Shown piece by piece: positions 14,929 through 30,094 of a stretch of 64,000 bases of DNA. The DNA comes from Candidatus Krumholzibacteriota bacterium (GTDB lineage: Bacteria > Krumholzibacteriota > Krumholzibacteriia > JAJRXK01), in assembly GCA_963764625.1 (NCBI GenBank), contig CAVXTH010000009.1:864001-928000 (forward strand), read 5' to 3'. Numbering within the stretch: the stretch's first letter is position 1; every line of letters starts with the position of its first letter. The position numbers and the translations under genes are program-made. The notes below the pieces were generated by a model. It was not told the DNA's origin. It made no database searches and worked only from the letters and a program-made list of their open reading frames with translations.

Positions 14929-15997
14929 TCAGCCGCTCGATCGCGCGCGAGGCGAGGCCGAAGCGGAGCGATTTCGTCTCTGCACCAGCTGACCGCAGGC
15001 TGCCGCGACCTCACCGCCAGCGCTGTCTCTCACGGTGCAAACGATTCCCGCGGCCCACAGACGATCCGCGAAGCGCTTCACTCGTTCGGCGGAAGGCCGC
15101 TTGCCGCTGAAGCCCTCGATTTCGTTGAGGGGAATCAGATTTACCTTGAACAGACCTCCGCGCGCGAGAGCGGCGAGGCGCTCGGCCGCTTCCTCGTCGT
15201 CGTTGTCGCCGGCGATGAGGACGCACTCGAGGGTGAGCTTGCGGGCCGTGCGTCGCGCGTAAGCCGCGCCTAACTCGAGGACCTCATGCATCGCCTCCAC
15301 TCCGGCCACCGGCATCAGGCGGCGCCGGGCATCGGGCGAGGCGGTGGTCAGCGAAAGAGCCAGCCCGTAGGGCCGCTCTAGCTCGTGAAGTCGACGCATT
15401 CCCTCCAGCGGTCCGCTGGTCGAGATCGTGATGTGTCTGGCGCCGATGGCCAGCCCTTTGGGATGCGAGAGGATTCGCAGGGCCTTCTTCAGATTGTCGA
15501 AATTGTCGAGCGGCTCGCCCATTCCCATGAACACCAGATTCGCCTGGCGAGAAGTGGGATGAAGTCGCGAGAGATGGATCACCTGCGCCACGATCTCTCC
15601 CGGTTGCAGTTGGCGACGCAGGCCCATGCGCGCTGTCGCGCAGAACACACAGGCCATGCGACATCCCACCTGAGTGGAGAGGCAGAACGTCCGACGGCTC
15701 GTCTCCATCGCGATGGCCACCGACTCGATTCGCTGCTGATCTCGCGAGTTCGAAGAGGTGCTTCACCGTTCCATCCGCCGCTAGCTTCTGCCCGACCTGC
15801 CGGAGGCGAGTGAATCCGTACTCGCTCTCCAGTCGACTCCTCAAGCCCAGGGGCAGGGCGCTGAGTTCTTCGATCGACTTGGCTTTTCTCTGGTAGATTC
15901 CATGCGCGAGCTGTCGGCCGCGGTAGGGAGCCTCACCCAGCGAGACGAGGAGCTCTTCCAGCTCCTGGGGGTTGAGATCGTGCAGACGAGGAGGCAT
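14929..15997 (-). CDS. rlmN: Dual-specificity RNA methyltransferase RlmN (frameshift near 15730)
   Basis: CLSTQVGCRMACVFC, MGMGEPL, AACGQL; N-terminal half is in ORF 15284..15997. Confidence 0.93.
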
Positions 15998-16073
15998 GGT
16001 GAACTCGCGAGCCTTGACAGTCTCCGGGATGCAGGATCAAGTTGCTAGCAAACTCGAGGGAGAACTTTGGAAG

Positions 16074-16460
16074 ATGGCTAAGAGTATAGAAGGAACCAAG
16101 ACCAGCGGCGAGGACGGTCTGGCCCAGCTGCTGGCCGCGGCCGGAGACGATCTCCGCCTGAGGATCCTGGAATTCGTTGCCCGCGAGCCGAAGTCCGTCT
16201 CACAGATCTGCCAGGAGCTGGAGGCGGCGCAGCCGAGGGTCTCGCACCATCTGGGGATTCTGCGCCGCTGCGGCCTCTTGTCGGTAAAGACCAAGGGACG
16301 GCAACGAGTGTATCGGTGGGCGCAGCCGGGTGGCGGCTCGGCGGCGTTCGATCTACAGACTCTCTTGCGGCGATGGTTGGGCTTGCGCGAGGGCGCCCAT
16401 GCGAGGGCCGAAAAGCCCGGCGGGGCCGAGAGTCAGCAGCTCGAAGATTTTCTTCTCTGA
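16074..16460 (+). CDS. ArsR/SmtB-family HTH regulator
   Basis: LRLRILEF...SVSQICQELEAAQPRVSHHLGILRRCGLL...GRQRVYR. Confidence 0.88.
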   Translation: MAKSIEGTKTSGEDGLAQLLAAAGDDLRLRILEFVAREPKSVSQICQELEAAQPRVSHHLGILRRCGLLSVKTKGRQRVYRWAQPGGGSAAFDLQTLLRRWLGLREGAHARAEKPGGAESQQLEDFLL

Positions 16461-16475: not shown

Positions 16476-17897
16476 ATGGATTCCAGGAAGGGACGGATCC
16501 TCATCGCGGATGACGACTCGGGACTGCGCGCGATGGTGCGGCAAGTCCTGGAATACGATGGCTTCGAAGTGGTCGAGGCCGAGGACGGTCCCCATGCGCT
16601 AAGGGAGCTGCGCAAGGGAATCTGCGAAGTCTTGTTGCTGGACGTCAAGATGCCGGGGATGGACGGCTTCGAGGTCATGAGCGCGATGCAGAGCGAAGGC
16701 CTCGATGTTCCGGTGGTGGTGATCTCCGCGCACGAGGCGGTCTCCAACGCAGTCGAAGCGATCCGGCGCGGGGCCTACGACTTCCTGGAAAAACCCTTCA
16801 AGCGGGAAGCGCTGAAGGTGCGGGTCCAGAAAGCGCAGGAGCACATGCGCCTGAAGCGGGCGAACCGGGAACTGGCCGAGTCTTCCGCCCGCGGCGGCGA
16901 GATCATCGGGGACGGCCCCTCCATTCGCCACGTGAAGGAACTGCTCGAGAAAGTCGCGCCAACTCCGGCCAGAGTTCTCATCACCGGAGAAAACGGAACC
17001 GGCAAGGAGCTCCTGGCCCGAGCGATCCACATGCGGTCCTCGCGCGCCAGTGGGCCGTTCGTGGAATTGAACTGCGCTGCGATTCCGGGCGATCTCATCG
17101 AGAGCGAACTCTTCGGTCACGAGCGCGGAGCCTTCACCGGAGCCGAACGCCGTCGGCTGGGCAAGTTCGAGAGGGCCGACCGCGGGACGATCTTCCTGGA
17201 TGAGATCGGGGACATGAGTCAGGCCGCGCAGGCGAAGGTCTTGCGCGCGTTGGAGACCTCGACCTTCGAGAGGGTCGGAGGGCAAGATCTGATCCACGTG
17301 GATGTCCGGGTGATCTCGGCCACGAATCGGGAGCTCCAGAATGAGAGCTCGGGTTTCAGGGAGGATCTGTTCTATCGACTCAACGTCATCCAGATCCACC
17401 TGCCTCCTCTGCGGGAACGCCCGGAGGACATCGAGGGTCTCTTCCTCCACTTCCTCAGGATCGCGGCACTGGAGATGGGACAGAGAGTGAAGGGGGTGGA
17501 CGATGGGGTGCTCGAGATCCTGAAGCGACAGCCGTGGCGGGGGAATATCCGTGAGTTGAGAAATCTGGCCGAGCGCCTGGCCATCGTGGCTCCGGACGAA
17601 AAGATCCACGAGGCGGATTTGAGCGTGCTGGCCGGGAGTGAGGCCACGAAAGGCGAACACGAGGACGTGTTCGCCAGCTCCACCTTCAACGAGTTCAAGG
17701 CGGCCAGCGAAGCCCTGTTTCTGCAGGGAAAGCTGCGGGAGTTCAGCTACAACGTGAGCCGAACCGCCGAGGAGCTGGAAATGCAGCGAAGCAATCTCTA
17801 TAAGAAGATCCAGCGCTACGACCTCGGACCTCCGGCTGAGCGATTTGTCCGGGGGCGCTTGACCCCGTGCACTGGAGCTACGTATTGTGTACACTAG
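16476..17897 (+). CDS. Sigma54-dependent response regulator (NtrC/NtrX family: REC-AAA+-HTH); true stop may be slightly earlier
   Basis: ILIADDD, LLDVKMPGMDG, GENGTGKE, ELFGHERGAFTGA, FLDEIGD, FREDLFYRLNV, HTH. Confidence 0.95.
   Translation: MDSRKGRILIADDDSGLRAMVRQVLEYDGFEVVEAEDGPHALRELRKGICEVLLLDVKMPGMDGFEVMSAMQSEGLDVPVVVISAHEAVSNAVEAIRRGAYDFLEKPFKREALKVRVQKAQEHMRLKRANRELAESSARGGEIIGDGPSIRHVKELLEKVAPTPARVLITGENGTGKELLARAIHMRSSRASGPFVELNCAAIPGDLIESELFGHERGAFTGAERRRLGKFERADRGTIFLDEIGDMSQAAQAKVLRALETSTFERVGGQDLIHVDVRVISATNRELQNESSGFREDLFYRLNVIQIHLPPLRERPEDIEGLFLHFLRIAALEMGQRVKGVDDGVLEILKRQPWRGNIRELRNLAERLAIVAPDEKIHEADLSVLAGSEATKGEHEDVFASSTFNEFKAASEALFLQGKLREFSYNVSRTAEELEMQRSNLYKKIQRYDLGPPAERFVRGRLTPCTGATYCVH
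17859..17888 (+). promoter_or_regulatory. Putative sigma70 promoter for the small secreted-protein gene
   Basis: TTGACC-N18-TATTGT about 105 nt upstream of ATG 17993. Confidence 0.45.
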
Positions 17898-17992
17898 ATT
17901 TGGGCAAGGGCCCGTGTGAGCGGAATTGGTCTGCCGTAGGCGATCGGGAGCTGTCGGCCAACGCCGACACGATTGCCTGAGGAGATTTGATC

Positions 17993-18343
17993 ATGATCAG
18001 CAATAGGAAAGCCCTGACGATCGTAAGCGCTCTCTTGATCTTCGCGACAGCGTGGCTGGTGACCCCGGCCAGCGCGAAGGAAATGAGTCTCCGAATCGAT
18101 GCGACCGACGGCGCTACATCCTACTCCGGCTCCGGGTAAGCACGACTGGGGGCGGCGGAAGTTTCATCAAGGGGACTCCGACGACGGAGAACGGAGATCC
18201 CGATGAGCTGACCGGAGGCAACCTGTCGGTCTGGGCTCCGACCAGCCCGAGCTTCGCAAGATTCGTCCGTGCTGGTGAGTCTTTGGCGGGGACTGGTTAG
18301 CTGGATCCAGGGCAGTGCAAACCGATTCGTGGAGGCACGCTAG
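17993..18343 (+). CDS. Small secreted protein / putative signalling-peptide precursor (48 aa to TAA 18139 as written; about 117 aa if homopolymer frameshifts are corrected)
   Basis: GAGGAG RBS; MISNRKALTIVSALLIFATAWLVTPASA signal peptide (ASA/K); continues across frames as VSTTGGGGSFIKGTPTTENGDPDELTGGNL...SVLVSLWRGLVSWIQGSANRFVEAR. Confidence 0.7.
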
Positions 18344-18419
18344 GACAGTACGAGTTCGAGGAATCTCGCTTTTCTCAAAGCGGTATCTCTAGTTGAACCC
18401 TTCTCGCCCAAGGGATGCC

Positions 18420-21400
18420 ATGCAGGAGTTTCGAGAGGGAGAAGAGGGCCACGGGCCTTCCTCCTCAAGTCCAAGCAATAGCGCTGAAAATCCCGCTCTG
18501 CTGCGGACCGAGCAGGTGGGGGATCTCCACTATGACGGCGCTGCTTACTCCTCAGCCATGGAGTATTACCGTTCTGCGCTCCGCAGCGGAGCGGAGTTGA
18601 GTAACGTGCCCGCCGAATCGGTCGCACGACTGCATCGCAAACTCGCCGATTGTTTTCTCCAACAGGGACTCCCCAGCGAAGCCGCGCGCGAACTGGGCCG
18701 GGCCGAGAGGCTTCTGCCCGACTCCGCCGGTCTCGCGCATGCCGTACTGCGGGTCCGTAGGGCCCTGGTGTGCTTTCGGCAAGGCCGGTACCGCAAGGCA
18801 CAGGCACTGGCCATGGAGGGGTTCAGGGAGCTGGCGACCTCCGACCGTCACCGCGAGGTCGGAAACGCCCAGATGATTCTGGGAAACTGCGCCATGCGGC
18901 TCGGGCGCCTGGAGAAAGCCGATGAGTTCTTTCAAGACGCGCTGGCCACCTTCCGGCGCGTGGACCTCCCGCTAGGACAGGCGCAGGCGCTCATCAACCT
19001 CGCGACTCTGGCCAAGAACGAATGCCGTTGGGCCAGCGCCCTGCAGCTCTTTTCCAAGGCGGAGGCCATCGTCAGAGATCGCGGACATTCTCACGAGCTC
19101 GCGGTGTTGCACAACAGCATGGCGGTGCTCTATCGCAAGATGGGACGCCGGGCCGAGGCCATGGCTCAGGTGGAACGCGGTCTCGAGTTGGGCCGCAATC
19201 TCGGCGATCAGAGTCGACTCACGCGCCTGCGCCTCTTGAAGGGGCAGATCCTGGTGGATGAGGGTCGCTTCGCCGAGGCCGAACAGAATTTGCTCGAGGC
19301 CCGGGTCCTGGCGGAGCGGAGACAGACCGGCCGTGATCTGGCACTTGCGGACGAGTTCTTGGGCGACCTCATGGCAGCGCAAGAGCGCTTCGAAGAGGCC
19401 GAACTCAACTACCGTCTGGCCGAAAAGCGCGCCCAGGCCATGGGTCCCGCCACCGACATCCAAGCCGAGGTTCTCAGACGCCGCGCCGAACTCGCGCTTC
19501 GTCAGGGCGACTCGAGCCGGGCCCTCTCCCTGGCGAACCAGGGCATCCGCGTCGCCGAGGCCTGTGGTGAACGCTTCGAGCTACCCTTCTTCGAAAGGGT
19601 GATCGGTCTCGCGCTCGCCGGGCGCGGGGAGTATCAGCCCGCCCGCGACGCGCTCGAATCGGCTCTGGCGCGCGTGAGTGAATACCGTCTTCCGGTGCAG
19701 ATGCGGAGGATCCTGCGGGACCTGGCCCATCTACACATGCGGCAGGAGGGCCGCGAGTCGCTGCTTCTGGCTCGCACCCGGTTGCGGGAAGTGTCGGAAA
19801 TCGCCGACGAGAACAGCGAGTACTCCCCCTGCCAGGTTCAGTTGGATCTCGCGCGCGTAGAGTTGAACCTGGGCGAGTTCGATGAAGCGCTCCTCGCGCT
19901 CTATGAGCTCGAGCGACTGTCTTGCATGGGAAGTCACGATGAACTCGCGCGGGACGTCCAGGCTCTGCGATCTGAGATCGAAGACGCCCTGTCCCAGGAC
20001 GCGGAGGACATCTCCTCGCACTATCAGGCTCTGGCGGATCTGCCCGAACTTCTGGATGGCGACAAACCGGACGCCGAGCGCAACTTGAGAACCATGCTGC
20101 TGGCTTTGGCCGATCGCCTCGCGGCGGATCGCGCGTTCTTGGCGATCCAGGAGGGCGACGGCGTCCCGCGGATTCTCTCGAGTCATCATCTGCCGCGCGG
20201 ACGGGCCGCGGGCATTGCGCGCCACGTGCTTTCTCTCTTGGATGCGGCCAGTGGTCCCAGAGTGTGGACGAATCCGCAGGCGGACGCGGCGTGGAGCGGG
20301 CTCGGCGCGGAGGAATTGCGCGAGATCCAGACCGCGGCGGCCCTCTCGCTGGGACGCTCCGGTACCCTTCAGGCCCTCATGTACTTCGACTGTCAGCCTC
20401 GCAAGGGGGCCCGGCGCGGCTTCAACAACGAAGCGCTCGCGGTGGCCGCGAGCTACGTCGAGCTCCTGCGCGCTCCGATCTTCGATCTCGCGCGCGGAGG
20501 ACGGGCCGCTACGGGCAACCGCGCGTTCCTGCTGGAAGAGGCCTTCGAGAACATCATTACCGAGAGCGACGCGATGGTGGAGGTCCTTCGTCTCTGCGCG
20601 AAAGTCGCGCCGACGCCGTACTCGGTTCTCTTCACCGGAGAGACGGGAACCGGCAAGGGCCTCTTGGCCTACGCGGTTCATCGCTTCAGCCCGCGCGGAC
20701 AGAAGCGCTTCGTCTCCTTGAACTGCGCGGCCATGCCGGAGAGCTTGCTCGAGAGCGAGCTGTTCGGACACGTGAAGGGCGCATTCACTGGAGCCAACCG
20801 GACCCACAAAGGGCTCATCCCGGGCGCCGACGGAGGTACGCTCTTCCTGGACGAGATCGGGAAGATGAGCTTGCCCATGCAAGCGAAGCTCCTGCATTTC
20901 CTCGACAGCAAGGAAGTGCGACCAGTCGGGGGCGGGGAGAGCCAGATCGTCGACGTGCGCGTGCTCAGCGCCAGCATGCGCGATCTGAAAGAGATGGTCC
21001 GGCAGGAACTCTTCCTGGAAGATCTCTACTATCGTCTTCTCGATTTCCCCATCGACGTGCCCCCGCTACGCGATCGCGCGGATGACATCCTCCTTTTGGC
21101 GCGGCATTACCTCGACCGCGTCTGTGGTGAGTTGGGCCGCCCGATTCCCCAGATGACGCGTGGGTTCGCGAGTGGCCTGAGGTCGTACTCGTGGCCGGGA
21201 AACGTTCGAGAGCTGGAGAAGGTGATTCGGCGCGCGGTCATTTTGAGCGTGGGCGAGGATCGCTTGCAGGCTAAGGATCTCCCCGACTCCTGCCGGGGCA
21301 AGCTCGCCGCCGAGGGAGAGGACCAGCCGGTCAATCCCATCCAGCCTCTGAAGGACGAAGTCGCCGAGTTCGAGAAAGTGCTGCTGGAGAGAGCACTCAC

Positions 21401-21503
21401 CAGTTGCGGGTGGAATCGCAGTGAGGCGGCGCGACGCTTGAAAATCAGCTATCCCACCATGCTGCAGAAGATCAAGCGCTACGGTCTGAGTATTCCCAAC
21501 TAG
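18420..21503 (+). CDS. TPR-repeat + GAF-like + sigma54 AAA+ + Fis-HTH enhancer-binding protein
   Basis: Many TPR-like helical repeats (e.g. AQMILGNCAMRLGRLEKADEFFQDAL); GETGTGKG, ELFGHVKGAFTGA, FLDEIG, WPGNVRELEKVI, WNRSEAARRLKISYPTMLQKIKRYGL. Confidence 0.92.
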   Translation: MQEFREGEEGHGPSSSSPSNSAENPALLRTEQVGDLHYDGAAYSSAMEYYRSALRSGAELSNVPAESVARLHRKLADCFLQQGLPSEAARELGRAERLLPDSAGLAHAVLRVRRALVCFRQGRYRKAQALAMEGFRELATSDRHREVGNAQMILGNCAMRLGRLEKADEFFQDALATFRRVDLPLGQAQALINLATLAKNECRWASALQLFSKAEAIVRDRGHSHELAVLHNSMAVLYRKMGRRAEAMAQVERGLELGRNLGDQSRLTRLRLLKGQILVDEGRFAEAEQNLLEARVLAERRQTGRDLALADEFLGDLMAAQERFEEAELNYRLAEKRAQAMGPATDIQAEVLRRRAELALRQGDSSRALSLANQGIRVAEACGERFELPFFERVIGLALAGRGEYQPARDALESALARVSEYRLPVQMRRILRDLAHLHMRQEGRESLLLARTRLREVSEIADENSEYSPCQVQLDLARVELNLGEFDEALLALYELERLSCMGSHDELARDVQALRSEIEDALSQDAEDISSHYQALADLPELLDGDKPDAERNLRTMLLALADRLAADRAFLAIQEGDGVPRILSSHHLPRGRAAGIARHVLSLLDAASGPRVWTNPQADAAWSGLGAEELREIQTAAALSLGRSGTLQALMYFDCQPRKGARRGFNNEALAVAASYVELLRAPIFDLARGGRAATGNRAFLLEEAFENIITESDAMVEVLRLCAKVAPTPYSVLFTGETGTGKGLLAYAVHRFSPRGQKRFVSLNCAAMPESLLESELFGHVKGAFTGANRTHKGLIPGADGGTLFLDEIGKMSLPMQAKLLHFLDSKEVRPVGGGESQIVDVRVLSASMRDLKEMVRQELFLEDLYYRLLDFPIDVPPLRDRADDILLLARHYLDRVCGELGRPIPQMTRGFASGLRSYSWPGNVRELEKVIRRAVILSVGEDRLQAKDLPDSCRGKLAAEGEDQPVNPIQPLKDEVAEFEKVLLERALTSCGWNRSEAARRLKISYPTMLQKIKRYGLSIPN

Positions 21504-21704
21504 CCTCGCCCTGACCCATCAATTCTCTTGATAGGCGTTAAGTCCACTGTTCATAGGGCCTTGGTTCCAAGGCTCTTCTCCATCCTATCAAAGAACTTTC
21601 CAACCGAATCCCCGGGCGCGAGGCACCGCGATCCGAGCTGCGGACAGAGCTTGCAACTCATTGAATTCCAATGAGATAGGAATGCCGCTGCACGGCGGAC
21701 TCGC

Positions 21705-21720
21705 TGGCACGGGGACTGCA
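21705..21720 (+). promoter_or_regulatory. Sigma54 (-24/-12) promoter 1
   Basis: TGGCACGGGGACTGCA = GG-N10-GC; AT-rich palindrome CTCATTG-AATTC-CAATGAG (21657-21675) and ATCAA-N5-TTGAT (21518-21532) upstream. Confidence 0.75.
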
Positions 21721-21730
21721 ATGGGGAATG

Positions 21731-22115
21731 GTGGCTGGAGTCACTTAGGCAATCGTGGTCCGGTCGTCCAGTTGGCCCTTGGGGCCGCAAAGCTATCGGA
21801 GGACGGGGTGGGAACGCTCCTCTCCGTCAACCGGCTGAAAGAGGTTGTTTTCCATCAATTCGGTCCGTCGGTTCGTCAGCACGAGGTGGGGTCGGGCTGA
21901 GGATTTCGGCGGAAGCTAGGAAGACAGCGCTTTCACACCGTCCTCCGAAACATCCCATGGGATGCAGTGAGAGAGGTCAAGGAGAGATCCGACACGAGAC
22001 TCCCCGGCATCCAGGACTGGCGAGATCCTGGAGCGGCCAATCAGGGGAATGGTCTGGTGAACCACTCACCGAGATCCTATGGTTGCGAGAGCCGTCCCTG
22101 TGGGACGGCTCTCGT
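21731..22115 (+). ncRNA. Putative sigma54-dependent structured non-coding RNA (about 385 nt)
   Basis: Starts just after the sigma54 promoter; no credible ORF; 23-nt long-range stem 21796-21818/21926-21948; ends in a perfect 13-bp hairpin at 22086-22114. Confidence 0.55.
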
Positions 22116-22354
22116 GCGTCCGGTCCCCACCTCGCGCCGACACCGCAAGCCCTCGGGTTGCGAGCTACCGCCAGCCCCTGAGTGTCTCCTCCCGGAGACG
22201 ATTCTATGTCCCGATGGCGACAACTTCCGCCCCGCAGTCTCCTGGTCTTCATCCTTTCGGAGGGGGGGGGCGGCGTGATTGAGGATTTGAAACCATTGAA
22301 CAACAAGGGCTTATGAGCCTATCCGGGGTTGCAGCCGAGCCGACTCAGAGGCGG

Positions 22355-22370
22355 TGGCATGGCGGCTGCG
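22355..22370 (+). promoter_or_regulatory. Sigma54 (-24/-12) promoter 2
   Basis: TGGCATGGCGGCTGCG = GG-N10-GC, 55 nt upstream of ATG 22425; IHF-like CAACAAGGGCTTA and TGTC...GAC palindromes upstream. Confidence 0.65.
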
Positions 22371-22424
22371 AGGCATGGGGCAAGGGACGGGGATGCGGAG
22401 GGCCTTCGGACGAAGGAGAGAGCC

Positions 22425-23363
22425 ATGAACAGAGCCAGCAACAGACAGTCTCGAGCCCGCCGGTGGCCGCTTTCGAGCGCGGTTCTGGTGCTCTCGCTCG
22501 CGCTCTTGGGCCTCCTCTTCGCGGGATGCGACGAGAACGACGATCTGGTGGACGTCACGCCTCCGGCCATTCCCAACGGGGTGAGTTCGATCACCGGGGA
22601 TTCGGTACTGTGGGTGATCTGGAACGCCAACCGCGAGCCCGATCTGGCCGGTTACCGGGTCTACTCCACCACCCAAGTCGACGGGAATTACGATCCGGTG
22701 AACTGGCAGCTGCTGCTCGAGGTGGGCAGCCCGTTTCCGGACATCCCCAACCTGGTCAGCTACGAACCCAATGCGAACGAGGGAAAGCCCTATCTGGTCT
22801 TCGAGGATCACACCGTCGACAACGGCTATGACTACTATTACGCGATCAGCGCCTTCGACGACGCGGGCAACGAGAGCGCTCTCTCCACCGACTACGTGGT
22901 GGACACTCCGCGGCCGGAGGGCGAGATCACCCTCAGCGCGGCCAGCGTGGATTCCTCGCGCGCCGGATTCGACTTCAGCGAGGAGACGAGACGGTATCCG
23001 GCCGACGTGTTCAGCGATTGCAGCTTCGATATCGTCAACGGAATCCCTCTCTTCACGGCCCAGGCCCCCTGGGTGAGGATGCAGGATTATGGGGACGTGG
23101 ACTTCGACACCGCCAGCTGGGCTCCCGAGTTCGGCTGGTCACAGGCCGGCGTGATGGAGGCGATCGAAGGTCACAGCTACTTCTTCGAGATCGTAGATGG
23201 GCAGCAGCTCAACTACGCCAAGGTTTTCGTGGAGACCATTTCGCAAAACAACGGCACGATTAAATTGATGTGGGGCTACCAGCCCGTCGAGGGTCTACCC
23301 GAGCTCAAGCGGCCTCAGGCGGCTCTTCCGCCGCGAGGTTCAGGGAAGGAGAGCTCACAATGA
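22425..23363 (+). CDS. Lipoprotein with FN3-like domain
   Basis: Lipobox FAG/C; PPAIPNGVSSITGD...WNANREPDLAGYRVY...YYYAISAFDDAGNESALS. Confidence 0.82.
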   Translation: MNRASNRQSRARRWPLSSAVLVLSLALLGLLFAGCDENDDLVDVTPPAIPNGVSSITGDSVLWVIWNANREPDLAGYRVYSTTQVDGNYDPVNWQLLLEVGSPFPDIPNLVSYEPNANEGKPYLVFEDHTVDNGYDYYYAISAFDDAGNESALSTDYVVDTPRPEGEITLSAASVDSSRAGFDFSEETRRYPADVFSDCSFDIVNGIPLFTAQAPWVRMQDYGDVDFDTASWAPEFGWSQAGVMEAIEGHSYFFEIVDGQQLNYAKVFVETISQNNGTIKLMWGYQPVEGLPELKRPQAALPPRGSGKESSQ

Positions 23364-25206
23364 AAACGCGAATCCAAACCATGCTTTCCCTTTTTCTGAC
23401 GCTGATCATTTGGGCGCGCTATGCCCTCGACTTCGGTCGCCACCATGGTCACTCCAACCACCGTTCTCTCGCTCCAGAATGAACCCAAGGCCGGCGATTC
23501 CTCGGCCGACGAGGTCCGCTACGCTTCGCGCGAACTGAGGGTGAGGGTGTGGCACGACAAGGACGACGACGCGGTCTACGCCCGCGGCGAAGCCCTTCAG
23601 TTGTACTTTCGTACCAACGACGACGCGTACGTGGTGCTCTACTACATCGACGCCGACGGTTACACGGAGATCCTCTGGCCGCAGAGTCGCTTTGACGACG
23701 GATTCGTGTTTGGCGGACACACCTACTCCATTCCGGGACGTTCCGCCGATCAGGGGCTGTGGGTTTCGCAGTCCAAGGGCGTGGAGTACGTGGAAGCGAT
23801 TGCCAGCCAGTATCCTTTCGATCTGCGCGAGCTGGCGATCGACTTCCGCTACGGGCCGGACGAAACCGGCGAGTACGCGCACCGGGTGTCGGGGGATCCG
23901 TTCCTGGCGGTGAACGACATCAACTACGCGATCACCGGCCTCGACGAAGACGTGGACTGGCTGGTCACGGACTGGACACACATCTACGTCGACCAGAAGG
24001 TGGATTACCCGCGCTACACCTGCACGCAGTGCCACGCGGGGAACGATCCAAAGTATGCTCCCTACACCAGCACCTGCACTCAGGTGAACATCTACGCCGA
24101 CTGGGGTTGGTACTCGCACTGGTACGCGAGCTTCGGGTACTACCCGCTGTACTGCGACGCGCCCTACTACTACTGGGACCGTTTCCTGTACCGGCCCTAC
24201 TACTACAGCTACTACCCGATCTATTACTCCTGGCCCGGCTGGAACTGCTACGTGCGGTCCTATCCGGTGTACGCCTGGAGAACCCACCCACGGTATCGGG
24301 GGGACTACGTGACGCTCTACCAGAGGGGCGTGGTCAAGGATCGCCCGCTCTACGATCCGCGCGTGCGCGAACCCTCGTCGGTGCGCGGCCGGGATCCGAG
24401 CCGGATCCCTCCCAGCATCGCGCGCCGTGGGCCCGAGGACTCACAGCGTCCTAGGCGGGTGGACCGCGATCAACTGACACGGAACGAGATGCCGGTGCGG
24501 CAGCCACGAGACCGTACGCTGACTCCCTCCTCGGGGGGAAGCGGACGCGAGCGCGCCGGAGTGCGGCCCTCGCGCGCAAGGCCGACGAGGACCGTGCGCA
24601 GCCTGGATCCGAACGGTTCCACCAGCGAACGCTCCCACCGTCCGCGATCGAAATGCCGGTAGTGACTCAGGCGCCGCGAGCACGAGTCACGGGCGCCGCT
24701 GGACGCGGCCGGTCGTGCGCAACGCTCCGGCCAATCGCGTATCTCCAGCACCGAGGCAGAGCGAGGGGTCCAGGGCGCGACCGCGCAAGGGTAGCAGCGG
24801 CAGTGTGCGCAAGCCCGATTCACCGCGGCAGGGAGAGCGGCAGAAAGTCTCTCCTCCGCCTCGCCAGTCACAGCCGCGAAAGAGCCAGGCCGCGCCAAGG
24901 CTGAAATCCCGTGATACGAAGCAACGCTCGGGCGGCCGAGATTCCAAAGGCGCGCCACACGCGTCTTCGGTCAGGGCCCCGCGTTCGGGCGGTTCGCCGA
25001 GCCAAGGAACTCAGGTGCGACGGAGTCCGTCCGGCGCTTCATCGAGGCAAGGGTACTCCGCAGCCTCGAGGAGTCCGTCGCAGGGCGCCTCGAGGGCGCG
25101 CGTCACTCCGTCGCGAACTCCCTCGGCTCCGCGCCCGTCCGGCGGCGCGCGTTCGGGTGGATCACGGGGATCCAGTGGCAACGGACGCAGGGGAGGTCGC
25201 GGATAG
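23360..25206 (+). CDS. Secreted DUF4384-like protein with CxxCH motif, Tyr/Trp-rich segment and long R/S/P/G-rich tail (frameshifts near 23415 and 24550-24720)
   Basis: Signal peptide MKTRIQTMLSLFLTLII; VYARGEALQLYFRTNDDAYVVLYYIDADG; CTQCH; Tyr-rich block; the low-complexity tail continues in ORF 24715..25206 (end uncertain). Confidence 0.7.
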
Positions 25207-25434
25207 CAACTCGCGATTGATTTGAGTGAGGGATTCCCACTCGGCCTGAATGGCGCGAGCGGGCCGCGAGTTCCTTCCCATCGATGGTTGGCAGCCGAAT
25301 GTGGGAGGGGGGAATCAGCGGACTTTGGGGGCCCTCTTGGGAGAGGGGCAAAAGGCCAAATTTGTCGATCAGGGGCGACGATGCAGGACCGGACGCTCCT
25401 CTCCCGCGACTTGGGGTGGTGGATGTGGTGAGAA

Positions 25435-25470
25435 GGGGCGGCGGTTGACCCTGCCGCCGTCTCCTTTTTA
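25435..25470 (+). terminator. Intrinsic terminator closing the sigma54 promoter-2 operon
   Basis: GGGGCGGCGGT-TGACCCT-GCCGCCGTCTCC-TTTTT. Confidence 0.65.
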
Positions 25471-25511
25471 TACTCCCGGCTCCAATTCTCTCTGACCAGG
25501 AACGAGCACGC

Positions 25512-28500
25512 ATGACCTTCAGCCGCGGGTCTTGGGCCGCTCTGGCGCTCCTCACCCTCCTCCAGCTTCCGCTCTCTCCCGAGGTGGCGGCAAGCACCGA
25601 AACCAGGCCGTGGTTTCAATCCTCATCCCCGGCTTCCGCGATAGCCACGCGTCAGCTTCTCGCACGGGCCTCTCGCCCCATGCGCTTCAGCGGCGCCAAG
25701 CTGAGTCAGATCGACGCCTTCCAGTCGCACAAAGCGCCCGCCCTACTACGCATGCTCGTAGTGGGGTGCGACTTCTCCGACAGTCTGCTCTGGGGGCGTG
25801 ACCGCTCGCAGTTCGTCGGTTGGCCGGCTCCCGCCCGCCAGGGAAACTTCCTGTTCAACGACGAAGGAAAGGCGATCACCGACGCACAGGGGAATCCCAT
25901 CTACGAATTCGCCGCGCACGATTCCACCTACTTCGACCTCCAGATGCGCAAGACGGCGGACTACTTCACGACCGTCTCGCAAGGGACGTTCGACTTGCAG
26001 TGGCAGGCCCTGTCGACGCTGGTGAACCTGCCCGAGCCGATGGGTTACTACGGCGCCGACCAGGACAACAACGATCGGTTGGTGGAGATGGCCAAGGCGG
26101 TCGTGGAGGCGGTCGATTCCGAAGTGGATTTCAGCAGCTTCGACACCCTCGTACTCGTCCACGCCGGGGCGGGACGCGAGACGGATATCAACAACGACAG
26201 CCCCCAACAGCTCTTCTCGAACTATCTCGACCGTCGTGATTTCGAACAGGCCATGGCGGACACCGTATTGTCCGAGCCGGGAATCCCCACTCAAGACGGC
26301 GTGTTGATCCGCCACGTTCTCATTCTGCCTGAGTCGGAAACCCAGGACCCGGTCGTCTCCCTGGGTCTCAACGGTTTCTTCGGGATGCGTGGGGTCTATT
26401 GCTTCGAGGTGGGTCTGCGACTGGGGATGCTCAGCCTGGCCGATTTCACTCCCTCGGGCCGTCCCGACAGCCAGGGCATCGGGAACTACGGCCTGATGGG
26501 GTATGGGCTGTTCACCGGCTTGGGGATCGTGCCGGCCGAGCCGTGCGCCATGAATCGCATGCTCATGGGTTGGGTGGATGCGGTCGAGATCGACTCGGAC
26601 AGCGCGCGTCGAATTGCCTCCCATCGAAACCGGAGTGGGCGACACGCTTCTGGTCAAGGTGCCCATCACCGACCGCGAGTATTTCCTCCTCGAGTATCGC
26701 CTGCAGGATCCCGACGGGAGCTTCACCTTCACTTTCGACGACCTCAACGGAAATCGGGTGCCCGATTTCTACGACGCGGACAGCGACAGTCGATCGGAAT
26801 TTTCTCAATGGACAGCCGAGCTCGACCTTCGATCCCGCCACCGACACCTGGGAGAGCACCCAGGGGGCGGAGTGGGATTTCTTCATGAGCGAGTTTCCGG
26901 TGGAGGACTCGGATGGTCCGGGTAGGGGACCGGGGCGGGGCAACGGACTCTACGTGTGGCACATCGACGAGCGGGTCATTCTGGAATCGTCTACTCGCCG
27001 GCACGAACGACATCAACTCCGATCCCCATCGGAAGGGAGTCGATCTCGAAGAGGCGGATGGAGTCCAGGATCTCGACACTCTCAAGGCCTCTCGCTTTCT
27101 CTTGGGATGGGATCGCGACTGTTTTCGTGGGGAGGGAGTGCTGATCGGAGATGAGCTCTTCGGCACTCGCTTCGCGGACGACACGCTTCCCAACGCCCTG
27201 AGCGCCGACGGCGCCTCGATCGGGTTCTCCATCAGCGAAATCGACAGCGTGCAGTTGGGGGTCGAAGGCTGCGCCGTGGGACCTGACTGTCCTTTGGGCG
27301 GACGCTTTACCTGTACCGCGATCGCCTGGGCTTCACTCTCGGCTTCGCCCGGCCCTGCACGCTCCGGGGGTAACCCTCGCCGCGGCACAAAAGCTCGACG
27401 CGGACGGACCTCGCTACGAGGTGCGTCTGGCCGACCTCGACGGAGACGGGCGGCCCGAGATCCTGCTCGCCGGCGATCAGGGTGCGCTGCTCGCCTTCCA
27501 CGGCGATCTCACTCCCTGGCAGGCCGGGGCCGATCCTCAAAACCCTACGTGCTCGCGCGCGCCATGGGGCAAGACGGCCCCCCGCAGTGGCTGGGGGCCC
27601 CCGTGATCGGAGACCTGGATGGCAATGGCACTCCGGAGATCTTTCTCAGTGCGCGCGACGGGGTCTACGCGTTCGATCCCCAGGGGAATGAACTGCGGGA
27701 TGGCGACGCGAATCCCTCGACTCTCGGTCTGTTCTTGCTCCCGCCCGCACTCGACGCCGAGCCCACCGAGCTCTCCCACCCCTGCCTTCTCGCTCCTCAC
27801 GACGGTGACCTCGCGGTCTTCTCCCCGGTCGCGCGTGCGGACCTGGTCGTGATCGCGCGCGGCAAGCAGGAGGGGGCCAAGGTGGGCGCGAGTCTGGTGG
27901 AATGGGACGGCGTGAGCCAGCCCACCGTGCTCACCTCCTCGGACCGCTCGGACGGGACGGCACGCCGTGGCGTCCTGAGCCAAGGATCCACCGGGGCACT
28001 CTATCTGTCGGTGGGTGGGGGGATCCCGCAGAACTTCTCGGGGCGGATCCTGCTGCGCCCCCCCGCAAAAGCGGCCAAGGCAGCGTTCACTCCTCCGCCC
28101 CCGCCGATCGTGGAGACGCCTTCGGTGCTCTTGAGCATTCGTCTCCGCGGCGACGGGATCTACGATCTGGTGATGGTCGACACCCTGGGAGTCCCCCGAG
28201 TGCCGCTGGCGACGCACGGAAGCTCACTTCCCTCTCCCTGGTCGGCTCTGGTGGGAGGGCCGGAGCGGCAGAACGGCGCTCCTGTCCTGGCGCTGGCGGC
28301 GGGGGATGCGCTCTGGCTCCTGGACCGGAATCTCTCACAAAGGTCCGACGGCCCCTACCGGCCATCCTATTCCACCGCGCAACTGCAGGGCGGAGTTCCC
28401 GCCGCTCCTCTCCTGGTGGATCTCGATGGCGACGGGACGGTGGAGGCGATCTGGCACGATCGGGTCGGGCGGGTGCACGCGGTCGACCTGAACTCCCGGA

Positions 28501-29069
28501 GTCTGCCCGGATGGCCGTGGCAGGGTCCCGGCGAACCCTCGGGGTCGCCCGCGGTGGGCGATGTGAACGGCGATGGCAGCCTCGAGCTCGTTCTGGCGTC
28601 CGGATTCGACGCTCTTTTGGGGACGGACGCGGATGAGCGACTTCCGCTCACTCGGCGCATCGGTGAGCTGCGGGTGTATGCACTCCAGATTCCGAGCACG
28701 CGTTTCGCTCCCTGGACTCAGGGAGGCGCCAACGCCTGGGGCACGGGCCATCAGGCTCTCGCTTCGAGCGCCAGCGCGGCCGTCTCCGGCGGCGAGGCGT
28801 TCAGCAACGGGGATCTCTTCGTCTATCCCAATCCAGTAGATGGTCCTAAGGTCCATCTGCGCGTCCGGCTGAGTCGTACGGCCCTGGTGAGTTCGAGCAT
28901 TTTCGATCTCCAGGGACAGGTCGTCCGGCAGACCGGAATCATCCGCGGCGAAGGACCCGGCCAGTTGGAGTTCGAGTTTTCAGTGACCGGTCTCGCGGCC
29001 GGTCTGTATGTGGCCAAAGTGGAAACGGAGGGCAGCGTGGCCCTCAAGCCCTTTGCTCTCGTGCGATGA
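25512..29069 (+). CDS. Secreted M6/immune-inhibitor-A-like protein with degenerate Zn motif, FG-GAP repeats and T9SS/FlgD-like C-terminal domain (multiple frameshifts)
   Basis: LVLVHAGAG, GIGNYGLMGYG, EYFLLEYR, GLYVWHIDE, GVDLEEADG, GDLDGNGTPEI/DLDGDG/GDVNGDG repeats, YPNPV...GLAAGLYVAKV. Confidence 0.75.
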
Positions 29070-29161
29070 GCTGGTGGACTTTGCCAAGGTCCGCGCGAGA
29101 GCTGTATACTCAATGCTCGAATCCGTGCCGCGCAATCGGCCTGAACGGTTGGGAGAGCTTC

Positions 29162-30094
29162 ATGCGCAATTCCTCGTGTATCGCCCTCGCGGCGCTTTTC
29201 ATTTTCCTGGCGAGCGTGCCTCCCTCGTGGGCAGGGAATCCAGGAGATGCCGGCTTTCTGTCCTTGAGGATGGGAATCGGCGCGCGCAACGGCGCGATGG
29301 GCGACGTTGGGGTGGCCGAATCGACCGGCGCCACCGCGATGTACTACAACCCGGCCAATCTCGTGTACACCTCAGGTACGGACGTCACTCTCCAGCACGT
29401 CGAGCACTTCAGCCTCTTTCGCCAGGAGGCGGCCGCGATCAGCCACCGGCTGCCCCGGGGCGCCGTAGGGCTCATCTTCAGCGGCTTTTACGTAAATGAT
29501 GCCATCCCCTTGACCACTCTGGATCGCATCGGGGTTTCCCAGGGCGATTTCCAACCCTACCAGCTCGCGGTGGGTCTGGGTTACGCCTACCAGTTCCACG
29601 ATTTCTCGCTGGGATTGGTGGGAAAGTTCCTCTACGAGCGCATCGAGTCCTACGGCGCGGCGGGCCTGGCGCTCGACTTCGGGATCAGCCATCGCAGCAA
29701 GATTCCAGGTCTCACCCTGGCCGCCGCGGTCGCCAATCTCGGCGGCCAGATGACGGTGAAAGAGGAGCCCTACGATCTTCCGTTCACCACGCGTCTGGGG
29801 GCCAGCTATACCCCCCACACCGAAGGGAAGGGACTCGCCCAGAACCTCACCCTGGCCACTGACCTGGTCCTGCCCAACGACGGAAACGGGCGGCTCCACG
29901 TGGGAGGAGAACTCCGCCTCCATTCCAGTTTCGCGGTGCGGGCCGGATATCGCTTCAACTACGATACCTACGGGCTCACCGCCGGCTTGGGCTTTCACAC
30001 GGGGAATTTGACGGTGGACTACGCGTTCATGGACAACGGAAACGAGCTCTCGGACGACCACCGCATCTCGCTGTCCTTCGCGTTCTTGCCGTAG
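29162..30094 (+). CDS. PorV/PorQ-family outer-membrane beta-barrel (T9SS shuttle-like)
   Basis: FLSLRMGIGARNGAMG, AMYYNPANL, alternating beta strands, C-terminal HRISLSFAF. Confidence 0.85.
   Translation: MRNSSCIALAALFIFLASVPPSWAGNPGDAGFLSLRMGIGARNGAMGDVGVAESTGATAMYYNPANLVYTSGTDVTLQHVEHFSLFRQEAAAISHRLPRGAVGLIFSGFYVNDAIPLTTLDRIGVSQGDFQPYQLAVGLGYAYQFHDFSLGLVGKFLYERIESYGAAGLALDFGISHRSKIPGLTLAAAVANLGGQMTVKEEPYDLPFTTRLGASYTPHTEGKGLAQNLTLATDLVLPNDGNGRLHVGGELRLHSSFAVRAGYRFNYDTYGLTAGLGFHTGNLTVDYAFMDNGNELSDDHRISLSFAFLP

Follow-up and report, generated by a model that had tools for sequence, protein, structure and literature searches.

The window analysed here, a stretch of 64,000 nucleotides (nt) from the genome of a Candidatus Krumholzibacteriota bacterium (contig 9, positions 864001–928000), contains a locus in which a gene for a small exported protein, a gene for a sigma-54 activator with a tetratricopeptide repeat (TPR) sensor, a putative structured RNA of about 320 nt and an operon for cell-surface proteins follow one another, and which is probably a sigma-54 regulatory module common to the class Krumholzibacteriia. 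Conservation bears out the gene set, two predicted sigma-54 promoters, P1 and P2, and the putative RNA together with its predicted structure. The source genome comprises 3.57 Mb in 9 contigs, is 96.4% complete and has a G+C content of about 62%; to our knowledge, the phylum is known from metagenomes only and has no cultured member.

Taken as a whole, the locus can be read, with moderate confidence, as a circuit that has the small protein and the TPR activator on its input side, the P1 RNA and the P2 operon as its outputs, and a feedback exerted by the RNA. The small exported protein and a cytoplasmic TPR–GAF–AAA+–HTH enhancer-binding protein would be encoded as one unit. Once its sensor is switched on, the activator, alone or jointly with the adjacent NtrC-type activator, would remodel the sigma-54 RNA polymerase at P1 and P2, just past its own gene. 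Transcription from P1 would yield a discrete, highly structured RNA of ~320 nt, and transcription from P2 would provide a cell-surface output consisting of a lipoprotein, a DUF4384 protein, an inactive M6-like protease secreted through a type IX secretion system (T9SS) and a PorV/PorQ-like protein. Moreover, the RNA loop GGCGAG(A) could kiss a CUCGCC sequence in a hairpin that sequesters the Shine–Dalgarno (SD) sequence of the activator mRNA and, in this way, tune its translation.

The module was followed through a class sample of 41 genomes from 8 families, a first set of 20 loci from relatives (set 1) and a second set of 43 loci from a separate, independent scan with a 7-sequence alignment (set 2); since 11 of the 43 duplicate set 1, there are 52 distinct loci in all. 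A search with the sensor part retrieves one orthologue of the TPR activator per genome, of ~1000–1100 amino acids (aa), in all 41 class genomes. The small open reading frame (ORF) lies directly upstream of it in all 52 distinct loci, as an ORF of 91–119 aa ending 0–90 nt before the activator gene in set 1 (20 of 20 loci) and likewise in the 43 loci of set 2 (41 by a filter, and L077 and L079 by inspection). An NtrC-type response-regulator (RR) activator gene is syntenic upstream of the module in 20 of 20 set-1 loci, every one of which has the RR-activator first, then the small ORF and then the TPR activator. The order that recurs across loci continues with a gap of ~900 nt (~920 nt between the TPR activator and lipoprotein genes in the window) and then the genes for the lipoprotein, the DUF4384 protein and the M6-like protein. 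A preliminary description of this DNA had pointed to a small signal-peptide gene immediately upstream of the activator, to a sensor of ~500 aa of TPR-like repeats plus a GAF-like domain, with no receiver and with GAFTGA intact, and to two GG-N10-GC promoters downstream, one before a structured non-coding region and one before secreted proteins. All of these observations hold. The small gene is present in the window, with its frame broken, and in the 52 distinct loci; Pfam, an AlphaFold2 model and the translation bear out the architecture of the activator; both promoters stand where they had been placed and keep their positions in relatives; the region after the first is structured according to covariation and to the z-score of its fold; and the second precedes the lipoprotein gene. 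The pattern of conservation that the same description had put forward as a check is also seen, a GDPD-bearing signal-peptide ORF and a −24/−12 promoter accompanying the TPR activator across the class.

The TPR activator matches the Pfam families TPR_12 (8.4e-23), TPR_MalT (7e-18), Sigma54_activat (1.3e-62, over profile positions 1–167 of 168), AAA_lid_14 (6.8e-21) and HTH_8 (4.5e-12), and no receiver domain was found in it by Pfam. The GAFTGA motif, which forms the loop in contact with sigma-54, is intact in its translation (...ELFGHVKGAFTGANR...). An AlphaFold2 model built from a 39-row alignment, with a mean predicted local distance difference test score of 87.6, shows ~12 TPR-like helical hairpins at aa 25–501, a long helix at aa 507–539 and a GAF-like alpha/beta domain at aa 552–690 (numbering of the 1027-aa protein); the C-terminal part holds the AAA+ domain with GAFTGA at about aa 712–878 and the Fis-type HTH (HTH_8) at about aa 981–1021. 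Relatives in databases carry generic names only, such as 'transcriptional regulator with GAF, ATPase, and Fis domain/TPR repeat protein', and the literature search, judged by titles, found no TPR-sensor sigma-54 activator described. These proteins appear to form a new subfamily of sigma-54 activators with a TPR–GAF sensor. The genome also encodes sigma-54 itself (rpoN; Sigma54_DBD 1.3e-64 at G000:C9:980674). A second, larger TPR-containing sigma-54 activator, with an open frame of 1458 aa, is located at G000:C5:55124-57499 on the minus strand, and counterparts of ~1410–1570 aa are present in most class-sample genomes.

The small ORF begins at ATG 17993, with AGGAG 8 nt upstream and an N-terminal reading of MISNRKALTIVSALLIFATAWLVTPASA|KE... 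As assembled, it reaches a stop at 18137–18139 after 48 aa; the GDPDE segment lies in a second frame (18139–18300), after which the first frame resumes with the C-terminal helix, up to a stop codon at 18341–18343. Next to the relatives G002 and G003, one nucleotide is missing from the window near 18113 and an extra one is present near 18254; the intact ORF of relatives encodes 117–119 aa. Contigs of a related strain have 73 letters against the window's 75 at 18070–18146 and one letter fewer at 18254; by frame arithmetic, the small ORF is open in them. Assembly indels are the likeliest cause of the broken frame, because other genes of the window are split alike and the related strain differs at both places; a true pseudogene is the alternative. 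The protein starts with a signal peptide, contains the acidic motif G-D-[P/A]-[D/E/G/H] and has a C-terminal helix that is hydrophobic or amphipathic. No family match was obtained with Pfam for six small proteins (E up to 1) and none with NCBIfam for one, and the leads from the ESM Atlas are hypothetical proteins of 109–112 aa with scores of 0.81–0.83, under the 0.9 level. The small ORF and the activator gene seem to be co-transcribed, because the gap between them is only ~0–90 nt and one RNA-library contig spans both (run X16, 551 nt over 17922–18474, reaching from the small ORF to the start of the activator gene, at a depth of 7.7). The small exported protein would be the input of the circuit, and a signalling or envelope-reporting input is considered more likely for it than a structural role.

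P1, of the form TGGCAC-N5-CTGCA, lies ~200 nt past the stop codon of the activator gene and is found in 21 of 21 loci, 18 times in a strict version (TGG[CT]A-N7-[TC]GC, 190–305 nt past the stop codon) and three times in relaxed CGG..GC versions. Set 2 has it in 29 of the 35 loci with enough sequence, and two of the six misses come from a misplaced search window, because the activator frame is broken there. P2 stands 33–112 nt before the lipoprotein start codon in all 15 loci with an adjacent lipoprotein gene. Among 14 TGGC-N8-TGC matches in the 64 kb, P1 and P2 are the only sites of the TGGCA[CT] type, and no sigma-54 motif was found in the gap from the RR gene to the TPR activator in 21 loci. 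Both promoters are preceded by an inverted repeat with a consensus of about AAGTCATTG-N5-CAATGACTT, whose best match starts 47–50 nt upstream of P1 in 15 of 21 loci, and which starts 64–94 nt upstream of P2 in 10 of 15; a second, distinct repeat of the CTATCAA-N6-TTGATAG type lies ~115 nt upstream of P1. On account of this adjacency and of the shared inverted repeat, the TPR activator would be the driver of P1 and P2, with ATP-dependent activation as a prediction. At a tolerance of up to 4 mismatches, the first repeat has 33 matches across the genome; a sigma-54 motif stands 30–65 nt downstream of four of these, namely P1, P2, a paralogous lipoprotein site (C5:104535) that is likely a further member of the regulon, and C7:178687. 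The latter, which lies beside another sigma-54 activator gene, is taken as a NorR-type site and was set aside as a regulon member.

The region G000:C5:104373-105178 contains the sigma-54 motif TGGCATTTCCTTTGCT, with the same inverted repeat in two copies, 61 and 223 nt upstream; the motif precedes a gene for a 144-aa lipoprotein, whose N-terminal part is like that of the P2 lipoprotein. The region G000:C7:177546-179423 has a sigma-54 activator gene divergent from the motif TGGCATCGAAGCTGCA, and the next ORF, which starts MESIHTNLAQLAIQNPAASRVF..., is one that we take, by eye, to be YtfE/RIC-like; this layout looks like a NorR-type nitrosative-stress unit.

Between P1 and P2 no conserved reading frame was found, and the conserved blocks carry indels of 1–2 nt. 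The base pairs of the putative RNA covary strongly. In a 26-sequence alignment of its core, 85.7% of the cells form standard pairs, compared with 66.2% in shuffles (none out of 500 is as high as this) and 36–51% when the partner is slid, and 16 of 18 pairs vary on both sides. For the whole RNA, an anchored alignment of 28 sequences is 83.7% paired, compared with 39–53% in slid controls, and 49 of 60 pairs vary on both sides, compared with 20–34 in those controls. The G–U pairs fall on the plus-strand reading, which is in accord with the direction of the promoter. The window folds over 21731–22125 at −188.4 kcal/mol (z = −6.09), and none of 100 shuffles folds as well. According to the predicted structure, a long-range helix, 21789–21803 with 21941–21954, encloses three inner helices, with the invariant loops ACCGGC at 21830–21835 and GGUGGGG at 21885–21891; a variable region then follows, and the last hairpin (22006–22036), the best conserved one of the RNA, exposes the invariant loop GGCGAG(A) at 22019–22025. 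Of 38 distinct RNA regions, 36 have this GGCGAG hairpin. In loci outside the window's family, an AAGAGCC...GGCTC helix surrounds it and a T-run comes next (17 of 19 aligned loci), ending 302–357 nt past the promoter. In the window's own family, no T-run marks the end of the RNA; a long G+C-rich hairpin further downstream, with compensatory changes in that family, may be an alternative 3' end or terminator.

Rfam 15 gave no match at gathering score in the window except one tRNA, and a search of 21504–22430 with E up to 10 returned only mir-149 (E 1.3) and MEG8_2 (E 4.9), far below their gathering scores. A covariance model of 114 positions, R1, which represents part of the ~320-nt RNA, gives a single match in the window's genome and likewise just one per genome in 63 of the 151 genomes of a phylum sample; by family, with strict filters, matches are found in 8 of 8 genomes of f1 and 54 of 61 of f2. 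The RNA appears to constitute a new RNA family, absent from Rfam and conserved in sequence in two families of the Krumholzibacteriia. A role as a CsrA sponge was considered for it and dropped, as no CsrA was found in the genome and the motif is missing in the window's own family. The motif UACAGGGAU, which fits the CsrA consensus from systematic evolution of ligands by exponential enrichment, is seen in the loop of a 5' RNA hairpin ~25–45 nt past P1 in many loci outside that family (L031, L037, L051, L052, L059 and L060, among others).

The presence of the RNA and of the small-ORF region in RNA libraries is supported by assembled contigs. Those over the RNA come from three salt-marsh runs, which have different study codes and possibly belong to one campaign, and extend over 21747–22046, 21748–22050 and 21750–21982, with ~98% identity (3–6 differences). 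They begin 16–19 nt past the predicted start, and their ends coincide with the place of the terminator in other families; a DNA contig from another run is continuous over 20931–22350. The activator body is represented by 151-nt pieces only, at a depth of ~2, and the coverage of this body and of P2 is sparse or absent, which has no bearing on their expression.

The leader of the activator mRNA offers a possible target for the RNA. The sequence CTCGCC stands directly 5' of the activator SD sequence (AAGGGA, GAGGGA or GGGGG) in 43 of 51 leaders, and 31 of 35 distinct leader sequences place it in a hairpin loop with the SD sequence as the 3' arm, on stems that vary by lineage (CCCUU/AAGGG, CCCG/CGGG or AUCC-CUU/AAG-GGAU). 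The leader CUCGCC complements the invariant RNA loop GGCGAG exactly, and in the window the match extends to 7 nt, UCUCGCC at 18402–18408 with GGCGAGA at 22019–22025. Both motifs are present in 34 of the 41 loci with both regions, neither in 2, the hairpin only in 4 and the leader motif only in 1, and these counts are dependent observations, given the kinship among relatives. A genome-wide search for other targets with CUCGCC beside an SD sequence gave 28 ORFs, mostly implausible, and duplex folding of the RNA hairpin with the leader hairpin paired the stems too. A kissing-loop contact between the RNA and the leader may tune the translation of the activator.

The operon that follows P2 starts with the lipoprotein gene, for whose product no family was found in Pfam or NCBIfam. 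The DUF4384 gene has probably been shortened by an assembly frameshift, since the orthologue in G007 encodes 612 aa, compared with 413 aa in the window. The two pieces of the M6-like gene both match NCBIfam NF052323 (7.7e-29 and 3e-20), and a single ORF of 1169 aa takes their place in G007. At 25435–25474, just before the M6-like gene, a sigma-70-like promoter (TTGACC-18-TATACT) and a hairpin that resembles a terminator, with a T-run, overlap each other; the genes for the T9SS cargo and the PorV-like protein may therefore be a transcription unit apart from the lipoprotein–DUF4384 pair.

Table 1. Features of the locus, with positions in the 64,000-nt window.
Feature	Position	Strand	Remarks
ArsR/SmtB-type regulator	15972-16460		between rlmN and the RR-activator gene
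NtrC-type response-regulator sigma-54 activator (receiver + AAA+ + HTH_8)	16476..17897	+	Pfam Response_reg 7e-30, Sigma54_activat 6e-67
Sigma-70-like promoter candidate (TTGACC-18-TATTGT) for the putative operon of small ORF and activator	17859..17888	+	consensus scan
Small exported protein gene (signal peptide, GDPDE, C-terminal amphipathic helix)	17993..18343	+	frame broken in assembly; ORF as assembled 17993-18139
Activator-mRNA leader hairpin CCCUU-CUCGCCC-AAGGG (predicted)	18398..18414	+	3' arm = Shine–Dalgarno; loop (U)CUCGCC 18402-18408
TPR–GAF–AAA+–HTH sigma-54 activator, 1027 aa	18420..21503	+	ATG 18420; longest ORF (1036 aa) from TTG 18393
A/T-rich inverted repeat AACTCATTG-N5-CAATGAGAT	21655..21677	+	starts 50 nt upstream of the P1 TGGCA; candidate activator or integration host factor site
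P1, predicted sigma-54 −24/−12 promoter TGGCACGGGGACTGCA	21705..21720	+	conserved in position
Putative structured non-coding RNA, ~320 nt	21731..22050	+	5' end predicted from P1; RNA contigs over 21747-22050
Long G+C-rich hairpin downstream of the RNA	22085..22116	+	compensatory changes in the window's own family; T-run after it in G006 and G007 only
Inverted repeat, second copy AAACCATTG-N5-CAAGGGCTT	22290..22312	+	starts 65 nt upstream of P2
P2, predicted sigma-54 −24/−12 promoter TGGCATGGCGGCTGCG	22355..22370	+	71 nt before the lipoprotein start codon
Lipoprotein, 312 aa, lipobox LFAGC	22425..23363	+	ATG 22425
DUF4384 protein	23421..24662	+	Pfam DUF4384 5.1e-17
T9SS-dependent M6-like inactivated metalloprotease, FG-GAP repeats, Por_Secre_tail	25512..29069	+	pieces 25512-26888, 26913-29069
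PorV/PorQ-family outer-membrane protein (T9SS)	29066..30094	+	NCBIfam NF033709 1.3e-43, above cut-off

Several points weigh against the circuit as proposed. On the input side, the window itself has a broken small ORF. The repeat upstream of the promoters is degenerate, being found with at most 5 mismatches in 6 of 21 P1 regions, compared with 2 of 420 control windows, and in 4 of 15 P2 regions, compared with 2 of 300; with its centre ~65 nt upstream of the predicted start of transcription, it could be a site for the integration host factor. The genome has 17 strong matches to sigma-54 activators, and the neighbouring NtrC-type activator and the rest of these matches are possible alternative drivers of P1 and P2. 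The body of the RNA is not class-wide, since R1 finds 0 of 81 genomes in the other seven families; the last hairpin is still recognisable in family f3. The evidence from RNA libraries consists of assembled contigs, which give neither the strand nor the true ends, and DNA carry-over is possible. As for the feedback, the complementarity between the RNA and the leader amounts to just 6–7 nt and shows no compensatory changes, because both sides are invariant; four loci have the hairpin and lack CTCGCC, and one shows the reverse. The sign of this feedback is also uncertain, repression being judged more likely than activation, which is itself a guess.

The neighbouring NtrC-type RR (16476–17897) might itself be the activator, or a co-activator, of P1 and P2, with the TPR activator working elsewhere or having a modulating role; this is possible, if rather unlikely. 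The synteny of the RR-activator is as tight as that of the TPR activator (20 of 20 loci), its AAA+ and HTH_8 domains are intact, and two distinct conserved inverted repeats lie upstream of P1. Moreover, the action of two activators on one promoter of a small RNA (sRNA) has a precedent in LuxO and SypG at qrr1, as presented in the accessible part of PMC10162802. However, P1 comes directly after the TPR activator gene and not after the RR gene. In five set-1 loci (L033–L036 and L039), the RR gene and the small ORF are set apart by extra genes, with gaps of 2.5–3.3 kb, and P1 remains there with the TPR activator. The proposed site of the RNA feedback is also on the leader of the TPR activator, which is retained here as the probable driver of both promoters.

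It is unlikely that the RNA, instead of being a feedback regulator acting in trans, is a cis leader of the operon made by read-through from P1, or a protein-binding or scaffold RNA, with the loop match as a coincidence. A multi-branched RNA of ~320 nt with three invariant loops goes beyond the needs of a seed-type sRNA, and searches of the 96.4%-complete genome yielded no Hfq and no CsrA; the missing T-run in the window's own family and the shortness of the complementarity also agree with such a role. However, 17 of 19 loci outside that family do have the T-run terminator, and the operon has its own promoter P2 in 15 of 15 loci. In two runs, the RNA contigs end at 22046 and 22050, whereas the DNA contig continues. 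CUCGCC, which occurs just ~0.76 times per kb per strand genome-wide, is found in the loop beside the SD sequence in 31 of 35 distinct leaders.

The small protein, for its part, could be an envelope accessory comparable to QseG, modulating an unlinked sensor kinase that feeds the RR-activator or reporting on the status of the envelope or of the T9SS, a role that we regard as quite unlikely. It has a Sec signal peptide, with a lipobox-like LAAC in G030, and has no T9SS tail, so that it probably stays in the envelope, and the output operon is related to the envelope and to the T9SS. A precedent is provided by the lipoprotein QseG, which controls the kinase QseE in the periplasm, according to the portion of PMC6075780 that was available. 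However, there is no kinase gene in the gene cluster, and the small protein has no recognised family, its ESM Atlas leads all being under 0.9.

The preliminary description had seen in the locus the layout of the RRNPP systems of Firmicutes. In such a scheme, the exported small protein would be processed, and a fragment of it (the GDPD core or the C-terminal helix) would re-enter the cell and bind the TPR groove, giving a density-dependent sigma-54 switch. The link of an exported small ORF to the TPR activator in all 52 distinct loci is in line with it, as is the family alignment of the small protein, where the mean column identity is 22% and only the G and the D of the GD[PA]D motif are near-invariant. 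Invariant basic residues are numerous in the sensor (K74, R179, R180, K240, R305 and R354 among them), and its closest solved relatives by sequence are peptide-binding TPRs, with profile scores of 2e-18 for kinesin light chain and ~1e-14 for Pins/LGN, followed by AfsR (3e-8) and MalT (3e-5); Rap proteins and an NprR-type entry score 2e-5 to 2e-4. A complex prediction of the mature small protein of G002 (30–117) with the G002 sensor (1–691), with alignments for both, scored 0.01 against a mark of 0.32 and weighs neither way on binding. However, the sensor is a generic peptide-binding type of TPR without a specific tie to RRNPP receptors, because Foldseek and profile comparisons bring up only generic TPR proteins: the 36 Foldseek matches listed (ranks 1–50) are all eukaryotic TPR superhelices (OGT, SPINDLY, APC/C, LGN), and no RRNPP chain is among them. 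The partner is a protein of 90–120 aa encoded upstream, and not a short pro-peptide encoded downstream; the gene cluster contains no import system; in a diderm host, the peptide would have to re-cross the inner membrane; and the GAF-like domain of the sensor could take a small-molecule signal instead. An RRNPP-like mechanism is very improbable and gained no support from the tests made. Still more improbable is the full self-signalling circuit of a diderm bacterium, in which a fragment of the GD[PA]D protein would be sensed by the TPR groove and would turn on the RNA and the T9SS surface operon, with the RNA in turn kissing the SD hairpin.

Compared with described systems, the locus works like LuxO–Qrr and QseEGF–GlmY and is a member of neither. 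The step from a sigma-54 activator to an sRNA, which had been likened to LuxO/Qrr from the outset, stands, the activator gene being followed by the conserved P1 and a covarying RNA; as in Vibrio, the gene of the activator adjoins that of a sigma-54-dependent RNA. A pairing of the RNA with the mRNA of its own activator, as in Qrr–luxO, would be a further likeness. Qrr RNAs are ~100 nt long, of the seed type, Hfq-dependent and often present in several copies, whereas the RNA of the Krumholzibacteriia is ~320 nt long, multi-branched and present in one copy per genome, with no Hfq found. LuxO has a phospho-receiver, in contrast to the activator studied here, which senses through TPR and GAF domains. 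The pairing of Qrr sRNAs with luxO mRNA is described in the accessible part of PMC3262071.

The combination had also been presented as undescribed, which overstates the case, as the glmY–qseE–qseG–qseF region joins an exported lipoprotein, a sigma-54 activator and a sigma-54-driven sRNA (from the parts of PMC6075780 and PMC8745638 at hand). As far as these parts go, the region of the Enterobacteriaceae, also named glmY–glrK–qseG–glrR, shares with the locus a small exported protein, a sigma-54 activator, a sigma-54-driven sRNA and an envelope output, and its signal passes from a histidine kinase to a receiver domain, with the lipoprotein QseG acting on the kinase. By contrast, the cluster of the Krumholzibacteriia has no kinase and its sensor is a cytoplasmic TPR–GAF protein; GlmY and the RNA described here are unrelated in sequence and fold (no Rfam match). 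FhlA, the target of OxyS in E. coli, is a sigma-54 activator. OxyS exerts translational repression on fhlA mRNA, which encodes a transcriptional activator (accessible text of PMC4344510), through a loop–loop kissing contact near the ribosome-binding site (PMC2946933 and PMC4344510, likewise in part); a regulatory RNA loop thus meets the leader of a transcriptional-activator mRNA, as proposed here. Unlike the RNA of the locus, OxyS is Hfq-assisted, is unlinked to fhlA and has no sigma-54 promoter, and a single loop pair of 6–7 nt is proposed here.

The likeness to the RRNPP systems (Rap/Phr, NprR, PlcR, AimR) lies in a cytoplasmic TPR sensor encoded beside a small signal-peptide gene, and the differences in the AAA+ sigma-54 activator output, the upstream partner of 90–120 aa and the diderm lineage. 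A further lineage-specific sRNA is Pxr of Myxococcus, which is developmental. An NtrC-like activator gene lies upstream of the Pxr gene, whose promoter is of the sigma-54 type, an arrangement that our literature search did not confirm. In contrast to the RNA described here, Pxr is a short RNA of three stem-loops (in the section of PMC5684412 available), and the two are unrelated in sequence.

The module ties sigma-54 control to cargo of type IX secretion; a T9SS output is in line with the proposal that sigma-54 governs the cell exterior (PMC3162934, in its accessible part). No paper joining Krumholzibacteria and sigma-54 was found in the literature, supplementary files being outside the search. 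For the RNA family, promoter and terminator are both defined and there is evidence of its expression, and the predicted feedback by kissing loops is a hypothesis precise enough to be put to the test in E. coli. If the small exported protein were indeed the input signal, the range of peptide and protein signalling in diderm bacteria would be wider; and if the full self-signalling circuit of peptide, receptor, sigma-54 and RNA were true, it would have no described counterpart and would run throughout an uncultured phylum.

Some observations concern the assembly and the surroundings of the locus. Four genes are split in the window, namely rlmN (14929–15997, minus strand, called as two overlapping ORFs), the small ORF (17993–18343), the DUF4384 gene (23421–25400) and the M6-like gene (25512–29069), all of which are unbroken in relatives; this points to indel errors in the 9-contig assembly, and ORF calls elsewhere in the genome need caution. 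The gene for an ArsR/SmtB-type regulator between rlmN and the RR-activator is found in the window and in 9 of 20 set-1 loci. Sequences near-identical to positions 17900–22450 of the window occur mainly in salt-marsh metagenome runs (runs X1–X20 compared), six of which share 20–33% of the sampled words, and the strain of run X1 is ~94–97% identical over long contigs.

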